DNA of 64,000 bases, from assembly GCA_964563125.1 (NCBI GenBank), contig CAZLVY010000005.1:387-64386 (forward strand), in the 5' to 3' direction. The notes under the pieces were generated by a model. The model ran no database searches. It was not told the DNA's origin and saw only the letters and a program-made list of their open reading frames with translations. Origin of the DNA: an uncultured Syntrophomonas sp. (GTDB lineage Bacteria; Bacillota; Syntrophomonadia; Syntrophomonadales; Syntrophomonadaceae). Made by a program: the position numbers and the translations under genes. Below are positions 2,879-44,040 of the stretch, one piece after another; position 1 is the stretch's first letter; every line of letters starts with the position of its first letter.

Positions 2879-3446
2879 CGGCAAAGAGGCTTACAAAGCA
2901 GTTGAGAAACAATTATCACCTTTATTATTAAGGCATGTTTGGCAGGTTGCTGAAGTAGCGCAAAAGATGGCCGGGAAATATGAAGAAGACCAGGAAAAGG
3001 CTTATCTGGCAGGTCTTTTACACGATTATGCTAAAGAAAAATCAGAGGCACAGCTCTTAATAATTGCCGCTGAAAATGCTTTACTCGATGATGTATACAG
3101 ACAGGTACCGTATTTGCTGCATGCTCCGGTGGGGGCTTTGCTGATTAAAAGAGAACTGGGAATTGATGATGAAGATATAATAGAAGCTATCAGCAATCAT
3201 ACTCTGGGGAAAGCTGCTATGAACAATCTGGAGAAGATTATCTTTTTGGCTGACATGATAGAACCAGATCGAGATTTTCCTGGAGTAGATAAGATAAGAA
3301 GTCTGGCGGCCAAGAATTTGGATAGGGCAATGCTTTTAGGATTAGATTCCACCCTCAAACATTGTTTGAATAAAAACAGTATAATTCATCCGCGGACAAT
3401 TTTAGCCAGAAATTATTTTTTGCTCCAGGTAAAACCACAATTTTAA
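2871..3446 (+). CDS. yqeK: HD-domain bis(5'-nucleosyl)-tetraphosphatase, YqeK family
   Basis: HD motif LLHDYAK. I prefer the internal ATG at 2871 (SD GGGGGAAG, 8-nt overlap with nadD) over the ORF-track start at 2823. Confidence 0.85.
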   Translation: MFNGKEAYKAVEKQLSPLLLRHVWQVAEVAQKMAGKYEEDQEKAYLAGLLHDYAKEKSEAQLLIIAAENALLDDVYRQVPYLLHAPVGALLIKRELGIDDEDIIEAISNHTLGKAAMNNLEKIIFLADMIEPDRDFPGVDKIRSLAAKNLDRAMLLGLDSTLKHCLNKNSIIHPRTILARNYFLLQVKPQF

Positions 3447-3560
3447 AAGTATTTATAAATGAACAGAAGGAGGATATGAAGCCATTAGATTAGAAATACT
3501 TATTATAATGTAAGTGTTTTAAAAAAATATTTCGTATTTATTACACAAGGAGGGTATTTT

Positions 3561-3911
3561 TTGCTCAAAGAAGATAAATTGGCACAAATTATAGCTGAAG
3601 CTTGCCAGGATGAAAAAGCACAGGATGTAGTTATATTAGATGTTAGTGAGCTAACAATAATAGCAGATTATTTTATCATTGCATCTGGCAAAAGTACGAT
3701 TCAAGTAAAAAGCATAGTAGATTATACGGAAGCAACCCTGGAAGAATATGATATCAGTCCAATTCGACGGGAAGGACACCAACAGGGAGTTTGGGCCGTT
3801 TTGGACTATGGGTCCATTATTTTGCACGTTTTTAGAAATGAAGAGAGAGAATATTATGCATTGGAAAATCTCTGGGGTGATGCGCGACGGGTAGCGTTCG
3901 AGACGGTATAA
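3561..3911 (+). CDS. rsfS: ribosome silencing factor RsfS (iojap family)
   Basis: A 116-aa ORF with the DYFIIASG...WAVLDYGSIILHVF signature, SD AAGGAGGG and a TTG start. Confidence 0.9.
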   Translation: MLKEDKLAQIIAEACQDEKAQDVVILDVSELTIIADYFIIASGKSTIQVKSIVDYTEATLEEYDISPIRREGHQQGVWAVLDYGSIILHVFRNEEREYYALENLWGDARRVAFETV

Positions 3912-4094: not shown

Positions 4095-6572
4095 CTACTT
4101 AACGACAATATTTATTAATTTATTAGGAACAACAACAATTTTCGCAATATTTTTGCCATTTGTCAATTGTTTAATTTTGGGGTTATCAAGCGCTAATTGT
4201 TGCATTTCTTCTTCAGAAGTGTTAAGAGGAACTTTTAAACGGTCTTTTACCTTGCCGCTTATTTGGATAACAATTTCCACTTCATCAAGTATTAAAGCTT
4301 CCGGCTTATAATGCGGCCAGGGCTCAAGATAAATACTGGTCTGGCTGCCGATTTCCTGCCATAATTCTTCACAAATATGTGGTGAAAACGGACTTAACAG
4401 GATGAGTAAACTTTCAACCGCCAATTTGACCAGAGCTTTATTCTTGTCTTTAACCTCACGGTAGCTGTTTAACTGGTTGGTAAGCTCCATAATAGCACTA
4501 ATCGCTGTGTTAAAATTAAAACGCTCTTTTATGTCTTCGCTAACTTTTTTTATGGTGGCATGAGTTTTATAGTATAAGCTTTTATCAATCTGGTTAAGGG
4601 AAGGTGCGTCCAGACTTTCTACCTCCCCGCGAAGCTCAGGCGCATAATCATTAACCAATCTCCAAATCCGGTTAAGAAAACGGAAACAACCTTCTACACC
4701 CTGGTCACTCCATTCCAAATCTCTTTCCGGAGGTGAAGCAAACAGAATAAAGAGCCTGGCTGTATCAGCACCATAGTTTTTGATTATTTCCTCCGGGCTT
4801 ACTACATTGCCTTTGGATTTTGACATTTTGGAGCCATCTTTTAAGACCATACCCTGAGTCAATAGATTAGAAAAAGGCTCCTGATGATCAATCATTTTTA
4901 TATCATGTAAAAATTTTGTGAAGAAACGGGCGTACATAAGATGCAAAATTGCATGCTCAACTCCGCCGATATATTGGTCAACCGGCATCCAGTAATTAGC
5001 CTTATCACTGTCAAAAGGTATTTCTTTCGAATCAGGACTGCAAAAGCGGTCAAAATACCAGGAAGAACATACAAAAGTATCCATTGTGTCAGTTTCTCGG
5101 CGAGCTTCACCGCCACAAACAGGACAGGCAGCTTTATAAAAGCTTTCCACATAATTGAGTGGAGACTCACCGGTTATCTTAAAATTTACATCTTCGGGCA
5201 GCAGTACGGGTAAATCTTTATATGGTACAGGAGTTGGACCGCACTGAGGACAGTATATGATTGGAATTGGTGCACCCCAGTATCTCTGCCGCGAAATCAA
5301 CCAGTCGCGTAAGCGATAATTAACGGTACCGCTGCCAATTGAGTTGGCTTCCATAAAATCGATTATTTTCTGTTTGCCTTCAGTTACTGACAGACCGTCA
5401 AAAGCGCCGCTGTTAACCATTTGACCATCACCGGAATAAGACTCGTGCAGAGTTTGGTTTTCGTCAGCACAATCAGGTTCTTTAATAACTATACGGATAG
5501 GAAGATTGTATTTTTTTGCAAAGTCAAAGTCACGCTGATCATGGGCCGGGACTGCCATAATAGCACCAGTTCCATAATCCATTAGTACATAATTGGCTAT
5601 CCAGATTGGTATTTGCTCATTATTCATAGGATTTACAGCATAGGCACCGGTAAAGACTCCGACTTTTTCTAATTCTGCACTGGAACGATCAACATCACTG
5701 ACAAATTTGACCTGGTTAACAAAAGCAGTTACTGCTCTTTCCTGGGGCAGACCTTTGGAGATAACTGATACCAGAGGATGTTCAGGTGCCAAAACCATGT
5801 ATGTAACGCCAAACACAGTATCGGGACGAGTAGTGAAAACGGTTAGTTTTTCGTCACTGCCGGCAATAGGCATGGAAAATTCACAACCTTCACTGCGGCC
5901 AATCCAATTTCTCTGCATGGTTTTTACTTTTTCCGGCCAACCAGGGAGCTCTTCCAGGTCATCAAGGAGTCTCTGGGCATAATCAGTTATTTTAAAGAAC
6001 CACTGCTCCAGTTGTTTCTTATCAACTTTGGTTTCACAACGTTCACAGGCACCTTCGACCACTTGTTCATTGGCCAGAACTGTCTGGCATGATGGGCACC
6101 AATTTACTGCTGCTGACTTTTTATAAGCTAAACCATTTTCATAAAGCTTGAGAAACATCCATTGGGTGAATTGATAATAGTCAGGATGACAGGTAGCTAT
6201 TTCGCGATCCCAATCATAACTTATTCCAAGAGTCTTGAGCTGCTGTTTCATAGCTTCTATATTTGAGAAAGTCCACTTTGCAGGGTGAATACCGTGCTTT
6301 ATGGCAGCATTTTCTGCCGGTAATCCAAAGGAGTCCCAACCCATAGGATGCAAAACATTAAAACCATCCATAGCTTTGAAACGGGCAATAACATCTCCAA
6401 TAGCGTAATTACGGACATGCCCCATGTGCAAATTCCCTGATGGGTAGGGAAACATCTCTAAAGCATAATATTTAGGCTTACCGGGATCTTCCGAAGCTTT
6501 ATAAAACTTGTTTTGTGCCCAGTATTCCTGCCATTTCTTTTCAATTCGATTAGGTTCGTATTTTATTTCCAT
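4095..6572 (-). CDS. leuS: leucine--tRNA ligase
   Basis: An 825-aa ORF with the HMGH and KMSKS class I motifs, preceded by a Leu-specific T-box leader. Confidence 0.97.
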
Positions 6573-6589
6573 GACAGCCTCCTAAAATA

Positions 6590-6905
6590 AAAATAAAAAA
6601 ACACCCTGATCCCTAAATAGGGACGAGAGTGAAAATTCCCGCGGTACCACCCTGATTGACAAATAAATGGTGGAGCTAGTGGGATTCGAACCCACGACCT
6701 CTTGAATGCCATTCAAGCGCGCTCCCAACTGCGCCATAGCCCCATAATTAATGTCCGCTTCCATGTTTAACGGAATTACCGTCCCAAACTACTTATCACT
6801 CGGGAAGCTTCTCGGCGAGTTCAACCGGCTTTTGTTACTTTTCACCAAACGTAACTCTCTTTAAATGCCTGTTTACTACTCCGATGCCATGCTTTTAAAT
6901 ATGCA
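6590..6905 (-). promoter_or_regulatory. T-box riboswitch leader, Leu (CUC) specifier, controlling leuS
   Basis: On the minus strand: AG box AGAGAG (6861..6856), distal loop GUUUGGUGAAAA (6850..6839), specifier GAA-CUC-G (CUC at 6819..6817) and F-box CCGUUA (6773..6768). These are followed by T-box AGGGUGGUACCGCG (6653..6640) and a terminator hairpin plus U7 (6631..6595). Confidence 0.85.
6668..6743 (-). tRNA. tRNA-Ala (anticodon GGC), located inside the T-box leader
   Basis: A 76-nt perfect cloverleaf: GGGGCUA-UG-GCGC-AGUUGGGA-GCGC-G-CUUGA-AUGGCAU-UCAAG-AGGUC-GUGGG-UUCGAAU-CCCAC-UAGCUCC-ACCA. It has the G3:U70 Ala identity pair and an encoded CCA. Confidence 0.9.
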
Positions 6906-6918
6906 ATTAACAATAGAA

Positions 6919-6947
6919 ATTATATGCCAAGGAAAGTTTAAAGTCAA
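6919..6947 (-). promoter_or_regulatory. sigma-A type promoter of the leuS leader
   Basis: TTGACT (6947..6942), a 17-nt spacer, then TATAAT (6924..6919). Confidence 0.7.
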
Positions 6948-7082: not shown

Positions 7083-7109
7083 AAAAAAATAGGAGGCCTT
7101 GCGGCCTCC
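7083..7109 (-). terminator. intrinsic terminator after the acyl-CoA dehydrogenase gene
   Basis: GGAGGCC-gcaa-GGCCTCC followed by UAUUUUUUU on the minus strand. Confidence 0.8.
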
Positions 7110-9828: not shown

Positions 9829-9843
9829 GCATAATAAAAATAT

Positions 9844-10181
9844 AAGTAAGCAAATCTATAAGCGGAGTTCTGTATTAGATAGCCATCTATCTTGAATGCC
9901 AGTTACCTGACATTTCCAGCGACCTAACCCGGGAACGAAGCGGGCAGCTTCAAAGTTCCTCTATTCGGTCTTGCTCCGGATGGGGTTTACCGAGCCATTT
10001 AGTCACCTAAATGCTGGTGAGCTCTTACCTCACCTTTCCACCCTTACCCCATAAAGAGGCGGTTTATTTCTGTGGCACTAGCCTTAGGGTCGCCCCCACT
10101 GGACGTTATCCAGCATCCTGCCCTGCGGAGCTCCGACTTTCCTCAGGTAAATATACCTGCGACTATCTGATTTACTTACTT
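9844..10181 (-). ncRNA. rnpB: RNase P RNA, bacterial type A
   Basis: The minus strand reads GAGGAAAGUCGGAGCUCC...CACAGAAA...GGUAAGGGUGGAAAGGUGAGGUAAGAGCUCACC...GGUAAACCCCAUCCGGAGCAAGACCGAAUAG...ACAGAACUCCGCUUAUAG. P1 pairs 10181..10169 with 9856..9844, and a TATAAT lies at 10191..10186. Confidence 0.9.
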
Positions 10182-43419: not shown

Positions 43420-44012
43420 TGGAAAGCAATCTGGCAAAAGGTTGCAGTATTCTAGTCAGCCCTATCAGTTATGAAGACGGGCCTAAAAATCCGTTGAGGG
43501 CACATCGATGAAGATTCTGGCATTGGCTTCTGACGCCCAGTTGGGGGTCATTGCTGGGAGTTAAGGATATGGGGGCAATCCGCAATGGCATGCGGGCATG
43601 ACCCTCATGTTCGTGGAGGCTTAGCGGGGTAAAAGCCCTGCTTTGAAAACCTGCATTTGGTAAAAGCTGGGTGCAGTGTAGCCTGCCTTGAGTGGTGGCG
43701 GCGGATAGGCTTCGTGAGCCATAAAAACCCCGGCCAGGGTTTTTGTGGTTCGCCTTGAAACCGTTTACTGCAAAAGAGGCTAGAAATTGATGTGGGTTGT
43801 AGAGGAAAACTCCTAGACTGTGTATTCTTTTATACGGTTTAATGAGGATTAAAGTGCGTCCTTAGTGGCAATCCAGTATGGTGTTCGGTGACGAATGCTG
43901 AGCAGACATAAAGGGAAACCGCCCCTTTGGCAACAATCGGGAGTTCTGCTGGGAAAACCTTCTGGACCTATGGCGCAGCGTTTACTCATTAGACAACCTT
44001 TTGCCAGACTAT
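43420..44012 (+). ncRNA. ole: OLE (ornate, large, extremophilic) RNA
   Basis: A 677-nt ORF-free, GC-enriched gap between ispA and a four-TM OapA-like gene just upstream of dxs. An extended -10 TGATATAAT lies at 43404..43412. A 15-bp closing helix pairs 43430..43444 with 43994..44008, and many local hairpins are present. The ends are approximate. Confidence 0.8.
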
Positions 44013-44040
44013 CGTTTTCTACAGGGAGGTACTAATTTAG

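Follow-up and report, generated by a model that had tools for sequence, protein, structure and literature searches.

A tRNA-Ala(GGC) gene predicted to lie nested in Stem III of leuS T-box riboswitch leaders from several bacterial phyla

The leucyl-tRNA synthetase gene leuS of an uncultured Syntrophomonas sp. (GenBank assembly GCA_964563125.1, contig CAZLVY010000005.1, positions 387 to 64,386) is preceded by a T-box leader that contains a complete tRNA-Ala(GGC) gene at the position of Stem III. We refer to the whole stretch of 64,000 nucleotides (nt) that was analysed as the window. A preliminary description of the locus had proposed this arrangement for a Leu(CUC) leader, and ARAGORN, the Rfam tRNA model and the Rfam T-box model RF00230 agree on it. 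The promoter, distal loop, specifier, F-box, T-box sequence, terminator and start codon were all found at the coordinates given there. The AG box AGAGAG is likewise present, but had been placed one nucleotide off, at 6861..6856 instead of 6860..6855. Window coordinates are on the minus strand unless stated otherwise, and leader elements are read 5' to 3'; the locus is laid out as follows.

7109..7092, minus strand: terminator of the upstream gene (sequence)
6947..6919, minus strand: sigma70-type promoter TTGACT-17-TATAAT before the leader, matching 11 of 12 consensus positions
6898..6616, minus strand: T-box leader, Rfam RF00230, full length, 102.3 bits (gathering score 93)
6892..6807, minus strand: Stem I with GA/K-turn region (Rfam alignment and sequence)
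6860..6855, minus strand: AG bulge AGAGAG (sequence)
6850..6839, minus strand: distal loop GUUUGGUGAAAA (sequence)
6819..6817, minus strand: codon CUC (Leu) of the specifier loop GAA-CUC-G (Rfam alignment and sequence)
6804..6768, minus strand: Stem II and Stem IIA/B region (Rfam alignment and sequence)
6773..6768, minus strand: F-box CCGUUA (sequence)
6760..6756, minus strand: purine motif AAGCG, of the form RRRNG (sequence)
6755..6752, minus strand: Stem III 5' strand GACA (sequence and register-anchored pairing)
6743..6668, minus strand: tRNA-Ala(GGC) gene, 76 nt (ARAGORN; Rfam tRNA, 68.1 bits)
6661..6658, minus strand: Stem III 3' strand UGUC (sequence)
6657..6656, minus strand: conserved AA 3' of Stem III (sequence)
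6653..6619, minus strand: antiterminator, 3' strand CUCGUCCCU (sequence and Rfam alignment)
6653..6640, minus strand: T-box sequence AGGGUGGUACCGCG, with the UGGU bulge at 6649..6646
6631..6595, minus strand: intrinsic terminator hairpin and U7 (sequence; hairpin present in the minimum-free-energy fold)
6583..6578, minus strand: ribosome-binding site AGGAGG (sequence)
6572..4095, minus strand: leuS coding sequence, 825 aa, ATG at 6572 (Pfam tRNA-synt_1, LeuRS editing domain and Anticodon_1)

The match to RF00230 covers model positions 1-219 (102.3 bits, E=1.9e-21), so that the covariance model accepts the leader at full length and above the gathering score, including the upstream region that had been read as Stem I. 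Its alignment to the window contains one 86-nt insertion, located in the Stem III loop. The specifier CUC matches tRNA-Leu(GAG). The terminator and the 3' strand of the antiterminator have 6627..6619 in common, and the two structures would thus be mutually exclusive. Stem I modules, an RRRNG-Stem III-AA unit, a UGGN bulge and this exclusive terminator are all present, and the open reading frame list of the window holds no frame of at least 80 aa overlapping the leader on either strand. We think it probable, taking the two statements together, that this is a canonical transcription-attenuating T-box riboswitch, specific for tRNA-Leu(GAG) and controlling leuS, and that the nested tRNA-Ala(GGC) is its passenger. 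Folding of the whole leader by minimum free energy recovered the cloverleaf and the terminator, although its score (z = -1.7) is uninformative on T-box architecture.

The layout recurs widely. We scanned one genome per species, 185,579 species in all, with the pattern GGTTCRANTCC-N{11,41}-GGGTGGNACCGCG, that is, a T-loop followed 11-41 nt on by a T-box sequence, which is blind to the identity of the tRNA and to the downstream gene; by our estimate roughly ten matches at tRNA genes would be expected by chance. The scan returned at least 119 loci. In at least 110, a tRNA-Ala(GGC) ends 8-27 nt before GGGUGG, and in a further 4 among the matches listed the same tRNA is clipped by the edge of the locus, so that the conservation which the preliminary description had proposed to look for in related leuS leaders extends to at least 114 loci. 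No tRNA other than Ala(GGC) occupies the nested position (114 of 114 real tRNAs among the matches listed). LeuS is encoded downstream in at least 110 loci, with 37-82% identity to the window protein by tblastn and a gap between T-box and leuS of usually 60-200 nt, and the specifier column of a MAFFT alignment reads CUC in 101 of 103 upstream regions. Judged from these alignments, the recurrence puts the nested layout far beyond chance, and the combination of Ala(GGC), CUC and leuS is conserved in more than 100 species from at least six phyla. Five of the 119 listed matches were set aside as unrelated (L017, L042, L044, L062 and L063); in L017, an ordinary Oribacterium T-box, the T-loop pattern happened to fit Stem III. 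Among the matches listed, the carriers are distributed as follows.

Bacillota, about 50 loci: Syntrophomonadaceae, Peptococcaceae, Thermacetogeniaceae, Desulfofundulus, Desulfitispora and others
Chloroflexota, about 41 loci: Thermomicrobiales/Sphaerobacter, Anaerolineae, Ktedonobacter, Limnocylindria and others
Armatimonadota, 2 loci
Candidatus Sysuimicrobiota, 4 loci
Coprothermobacterota, 2 loci
Caldisericota, 1 locus
Metagenome-assembled genomes (MAGs) with other single or unlikely labels, a few loci

Cultured carriers include Syntrophomonas wolfei subsp. methylbutyratica, S. palmitatica, Thermosyntropha lipolytica, two Desulfofundulus species and Desulfitispora alkaliphila; the LeuS closest to that of the window among the matches listed is from a Syntrophomonas MAG (L079, 82% identity). 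Full-length T-boxes were found by Rfam in carriers from other phyla at 60-133 bits (E 1e-11 to 4e-29). However, only 7 of 20 diverse carrier loci pass the RF00230 gathering score, and the other 13 score 60-91 bits (E 1e-11 to 1e-19). The loss of score results from the tRNA insertion and is a possible reason for these elements having escaped routine annotation.

We then consider what kind of RNA the insert encodes. The copy in the window has the alanine identity pair G3:U70, A73, the anticodon GGC and an encoded CCA, and its 68.1 bits stand against an Rfam tRNA gathering score of 29; ARAGORN detected no second tRNA in the 64-kb window. Among the matches listed, G3:U70 and A73 are present in 111 of 111 copies and the anticodon GGC in all 110 copies detected by ARAGORN. 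Each of the 21 cloverleaf pairs is a standard pair in every one of 70 distinct sequences (100%), and 15 of them vary by compensatory double changes; the Rfam tRNA scores of nested copies (63-69 bits) are typical of real genes. CCA is encoded in 85 of the 111 copies and absent from 26, mostly in Chloroflexota (e.g. ACC-U in Anaerolineae), so the nested gene seems to conform to what is usual for tRNA genes in its host lineage. Comparative analysis thus indicates that the insert is a selectively maintained tRNA-Ala gene, as the preliminary description held when it took the tRNA to be genuine. A chance or pseudogene origin was rejected on the invariant identity elements and on the intact pairs with compensatory changes.

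A tRNA shape might nevertheless be kept for reasons other than translation. The insert could be a processing or structural module, a mascRNA-type RNase P signal that matures or stabilises the leuS mRNA without being used as a tRNA. The base before the tRNA, N(-1), is enriched for U (72 of 107 distinct contexts), a common RNase P substrate preference, and cleavage of the B. subtilis thrS leader is said to affect mRNA stability. The same effect is reported for cleavage of the S. aureus met leader (PMC7913692). A bare RNase P signal, however, needs neither an anticodon nor the identity elements of alanyl-tRNA synthetase, and the invariant G3:U70, A73 and GGC, none of which was specified by the search pattern, together with scores in the range of real tRNA genes, make this explanation very unlikely.

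In five loci (L001, L005, L038, L048 and L126) the nested tRNA-Ala also gives sub-threshold matches to the Rfam model of transfer-messenger RNA (tmRNA), at about 40-46 bits. These presumably arise from the tRNA-Ala-like domain of tmRNA and could confuse automated annotation.

T-box Stem III is flanked by conserved purines, 5'-RRRNG on one side and AA-3' on the other (PMC7778990). In the window, the order is AAGCG, GACA, 8 nt, the tRNA, 6 nt, UGUC, AA, UCA and GGGUGG. The preliminary description had the tRNA standing in place of Stem III. Its location there is correct, but the stem has not been replaced: the basal helix G6755-A6752/U6661-C6658 and the AAGCG and AA flanks are kept. To examine this helix across loci, we set the pairing register without recourse to complementarity, anchoring the 5' strand on the conserved G of RRRNG in its MAFFT column and the 3' strand on the AA five bases 5' of GGGUGG. 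In 75 distinct flank pairs, positions 1 to 5 form standard pairs in 97, 93, 93, 83 and 91% of cases, whereas control registers with one strand shifted were paired at a mean of 32-50%. The identity of the pairs varies, with A-U (37), G-C (25) and U-A (4) at position 2, C-G (35) and U-A (31) at position 3, and G-C (38), A-U (21) and G-U (9) at position 5. The flanking motifs are also retained, RRRNG-type motifs and AA occurring in about 82-88 of 92 loci and AA in 88 of 92.

This register-anchored test was used instead of two tests of flank energy. Duplex energies of the flanks differed little from those of mononucleotide shuffles (median z -1.1), and in a comparison with the flanks of other loci, a locus's own 5' flank came among the best 5% in only 32% of cases. 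Both discriminate weakly, since helices are common to related loci and a GC-rich flank will pair with any sequence. The pairing pattern leads us to place the tRNA in the predicted apical loop of a Stem III whose base is retained. The linkers around it vary among the matches listed from 8 to 57 nt on the 5' side and from 8 to 27 nt on the 3' side, which argues against a fixed three-dimensional role or position of the tRNA body relative to the T-box core.

The tRNA and the two parts of the leader appear to belong to one transcription unit. On the minus strand of the window, just one good promoter-like site occurs between the terminator of the upstream gene and leuS, and it precedes Stem I; the one terminator of the leader is that of the T-box. 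In consensus scans of 100 distinct leaders, a promoter-like site lies just upstream of Stem I in 70, and sigma70-like sites with a -10 element ending 4-60 nt 5' of the tRNA are absent from all 100; a T-run follows the antiterminator in 90. On these scans, an internal promoter of the tRNA's own was rejected for the window and for the 100 leaders, in keeping with the single transcript assumed in the preliminary description. Were the tRNA nonetheless an independent unit with its own promoter, the T-box halves around it would be a disrupted, non-functional relic. We regard this as highly improbable. Besides the lack of any internal promoter-like site in these scans, the specifier, the Stem III base, the RRRNG and AA motifs, the T-box sequence and the terminator are conserved with covariation down to about 47% LeuS identity, whereas a relic would decay, and decay is apparent only in L106 and L110.

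These two loci stand beside a group in which the leader is joined to a second tRNA gene. In 16-17 loci of Chloroflexota, mostly Anaerolineae, a tRNA-Ala(CGC) gene on the same strand ends about 20 nt before Stem I and has a TTGACA-17-TATACT promoter about 10 nt upstream. The order there is promoter, tRNA-Ala(CGC), Stem I/II, Stem III with tRNA-Ala(GGC), T-box and terminator, and leuS, and with the promoter directly before tRNA-Ala(CGC) the leader is evidently part of a tRNA operon.

tRNA-Ala(CGC) loci: L018, L019 (e.g. 5592-5666, minus strand), L036, L039, L047, L053, L059, L070, L085, L099, L103, L112, L113 and L116

Only about 80 nt separate the CGC tRNA from the GGC tRNA in L106 (oriented 3342-3582) and L110 (oriented 4727-4966). 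A deletion there runs from inside Stem I up to and including the 5' strand of Stem III, and the T-box sequence and terminator are kept; from their sequences these look like decayed or Stem-I-less derivatives.

As an unbiased check, we also examined leuS loci from metagenomes that were picked solely by similarity to the N-terminal 268 aa of LeuS. At 66% LeuS identity or more, 12 of 13 loci have a T-box with a nested tRNA-Ala(GGC); the best match to the window protein is L120, at 93% identity. The exception, L130, has neither a T-box nor a nested tRNA. A sub-threshold match to the cspA thermoregulator lies upstream of its leuS (1031-1384; 45.7 bits against a gathering score of 78) and is probably spurious. 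A further 65 more distant leuS loci, 4 of them with less than 350 nt of upstream sequence, showed no T-box. Three loci, L158, L164 and L171, carry a canonical leuS T-box at 119-126 bits, with CUC, a short Stem III and no tRNA, and their LeuS proteins are closest to those of leuS genes without a T-box.

In the mechanism we propose, a single promoter would yield one RNA with two roles, riboswitch leader and pre-tRNA. Transcription would reach the tRNA before the antiterminator and terminator. Stem I would capture tRNA-Leu, and the choice between termination and read-through would fall within roughly 100 nt of further transcription, when the polymerase arrives at the terminator some 70-150 nt beyond the tRNA; processing is expected to be slower than this. 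The nested tRNA would be unable to trigger the switch itself, because its anticodon GGC mismatches CUC and its 3'-extended A76 resembles that of a charged tRNA. RNase P cutting at G6743, followed by 3' maturation, would then free tRNA-Ala(GGC) from terminated and read-through RNAs alike, so that the tRNA would be made constitutively from the leader promoter and the T-box terminator would double as the terminator of the tRNA gene. In read-through leuS mRNA, this processing would strip off Stem I and Stem II and leave a terminator-region hairpin near the new 5' end. For the 3' end, the preliminary description had invoked RNase Z, which is doubtful for the CCA-encoding copy of the window given that CCA is an RNase Z anti-determinant in B. 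subtilis. Following the established B. subtilis rules for CCA-encoding tRNAs, this end would probably be made by an endonucleolytic cut in the T-box/terminator region and subsequent exonuclease trimming.

A gene for RNase P RNA of bacterial class A lies at 9843-10178 on the minus strand of the window (302 bits), about 3 kb from the nested tRNA; it is the ribozyme expected to process that tRNA.

We therefore favour, as the likely reading of the sequence data, a functional tRNA-Ala(GGC) nested in Stem III, with one transcript serving as riboswitch leader and as pre-tRNA and the tRNA as a passenger. It would occupy a structurally permissive site, and its supply of this isoacceptor would have kept it there for so long. 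Its persistence is most simply accounted for as a frozen accident, consolidated by the role of the gene as a source, possibly the sole one, of the isoacceptor. Several points weigh against this reading. The Stem III base of the window has just 4 bp and is weak (-4.3 kcal/mol), and a CCA-encoding tRNA that precedes a stable hairpin needs an endonucleolytic cut for its 3' maturation. In addition, a passenger model by itself leaves unexplained both the exclusivity of Ala(GGC) (114 of 114 listed) and its linkage to the leader across phyla.

An alternative makes the nested tRNA a functional component of the switch. A cut by RNase P at the 5' end of the tRNA might separate the sensing Stem I from the discriminator, and antitermination would then be timed or restricted by this cut. 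Or the ACCA, extended at its 3' end, might pose in cis as a charged tRNA and compete for UGGU, so that induction would have to pass a higher threshold. Among the matches listed, only Ala(GGC) is associated with leuS and CUC across phyla, the tRNA always lies 8-27 nt from the T-box bulge, and the Stem III base would hold it beside the discriminator core; in the window, ACCA is indeed complementary to UGGU. This complementarity had been pointed out in the preliminary description and is real there, but it is expected for any tRNA with A73 and is not conserved across loci: 26 of 111 copies do not encode CCA, and four loci combine UGGC with A73. A pairing of ACCA with UGGU in cis as a general conserved feature was rejected on these grounds. 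With Stem III formed, moreover, ACCA would lie at the distal end, away from the bulge. The widely varying linkers on both sides and the existence of leuS T-boxes with the same specifier and a plain Stem III also speak against a working part, and on balance we consider this explanation unlikely. If it were true, expression of leuS would depend on tRNA-processing capacity or on tRNA-Ala biogenesis. The more specific proposal, a kinetic or competitive riboswitch component that tunes the induction of leuS by tRNA-Leu through RNase P cleavage or through a 3'-blocked ACCA, seems to us a little more doubtful still. It would tie expression of the synthetase to tRNA-processing capacity and would amount to riboswitch control through an embedded ribozyme substrate, which we have not seen described.

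Several loci show variations on the common layout. The bulge reads UGGC rather than UGGU in L064, L076, L091 and L113; it would pair with G73, and the nested tRNA-Ala keeps A73. The leaders of L078 (7219-7455, Caldisericota) and L038 (2087-2325, Coprothermobacterota) are only about 237 nt long including the tRNA, so that their Stem I/II region must be far more compact than in Bacillota. A gene lies between the T-box and leuS in about 15 loci, encoding either an IlvE-like class IV aminotransferase or an AMP-binding enzyme. Among these intervening reading frames, those tested with Pfam gave PF01063 (IlvE-like) in L056 and PF00501 (AMP-binding) in the Desulfofundulus locus L021; for the rest, the assignment is based on spacing or sequence similarity. 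In such loci, the Leu T-box with its nested tRNA appears, from gene order, to control a small operon.

Loci with an intervening gene: L011, L026, L045, L046, L050-L052, L055, L056, L060, L070, L083, L099, L100 and L114; also L021 and L057

A tRNA-Leu(GAG) gene, whose product is the predicted ligand of the CUC specifier, was observed in a Ktedonobacter racemifer MAG (L016, 7420-7502), about 3 kb downstream of leuS and adjoining tRNA-Val(UAC). Elsewhere in the window, a full-length OLE (ornate large extremophilic) RNA lies on the plus strand at 43423-44016 (456.8 bits), in line with an anaerobic Bacillota host. This OLE RNA and the class A RNase P RNA agree with the closeness of the window to Syntrophomonas MAGs.

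Compared with canonical leuS T-boxes of the B. subtilis type (RF00230), including L158, L164 and L171, the leaders described here have the same Stem I with CUC, Stem II and IIA/B with F-box, RRRNG-Stem III-AA unit, T-box sequence with UGGU bulge, competing terminator and antiterminator, and downstream leuS. They differ in Stem III, which is a short hairpin in the canonical elements and here bears a 76-nt tRNA gene with linkers in its apical loop. Insertions into T-boxes are known, such as stem Sa, a lineage-specific insertion in the staphylococcal glyS T-box (PMC9177973, PMC4574755), and those in Stem III or helix A2 of translational T-boxes (PMC7583486). In these cases too, an extra structured element is tolerated in the discriminator region of a canonical T-box. 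Those earlier inserts, however, are simple helices without a gene function of their own and confined to one genus, whereas the insert described here is a complete tRNA gene found in several phyla.

Functional tRNAs within larger structured RNAs also have parallels. Genes for tRNA-Ile and tRNA-Ala lie in 16S-23S rRNA spacers. The nearest precedent that we found is a tRNA embedded in GOLLD RNA (PMC12990946). As in these two systems, the flanks pair around the tRNA and excision is required; in contrast to them, the host here would be a cis-regulatory riboswitch that senses another tRNA, and excision would sever the sensor from the regulated mRNA. The E. coli thrU-tyrU-glyT-thrT-tufB transcript is a tRNA-mRNA co-transcript that likewise places tRNAs and a translation-related gene under one promoter, with the tRNAs freed by RNase P and 3' processing. 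Its tRNAs, however, merely precede the mRNA and are not nested in a regulatory element, and read-through is unconditional. Finally, some T-box leaders are themselves processed. The B. subtilis thrS leader reportedly undergoes cleavage. The S. aureus met leader is reported to be cleaved by RNase III (PMC7913692). In our case, too, a cut made after the decision would give the downstream mRNA a new 5' end and perhaps a different stability, but the proposed cleavage signal would be a tRNA recognised by RNase P.

The preliminary description knew of no T-box with an embedded tRNA gene, and our literature search found none: no tRNA gene within a T-box leader is described in the open-access literature that we searched, although a brief mention in older surveys is possible. 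The arrangement is likewise absent from the 2020 WIREs T-box review, the TBDB paper, the 2022 paper on lineage-specific insertions and the Wels 2008 in-silico survey. The T-box and the tRNA are textbook elements; as far as we can tell, it is their nested combination across phyla, with its implications for processing, that is new.

If the passenger reading is correct, a riboswitch leader can also be a gene, its constitutive and mostly terminated T-box transcript doubling as a tRNA precursor. With an RNase P substrate between the Stem I sensor and the expression platform, these leaders would offer a natural system in which to study the timing of processing relative to the regulatory decision. 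The apical end of Stem III evidently tolerates a folded domain of 76 nt, which may be useful for structural work on T-boxes and for their engineering. For annotation, the 13 of 20 loci below the Rfam gathering score mean that standard procedures would miss the riboswitch and report the tRNA gene only. In Anaerolineae, the whole leader is bound up with two tRNA-Ala genes, between which it lies. The conservation of the layout across phyla suggests that it is very old, and it may bear on the origin of the leuS T-box.

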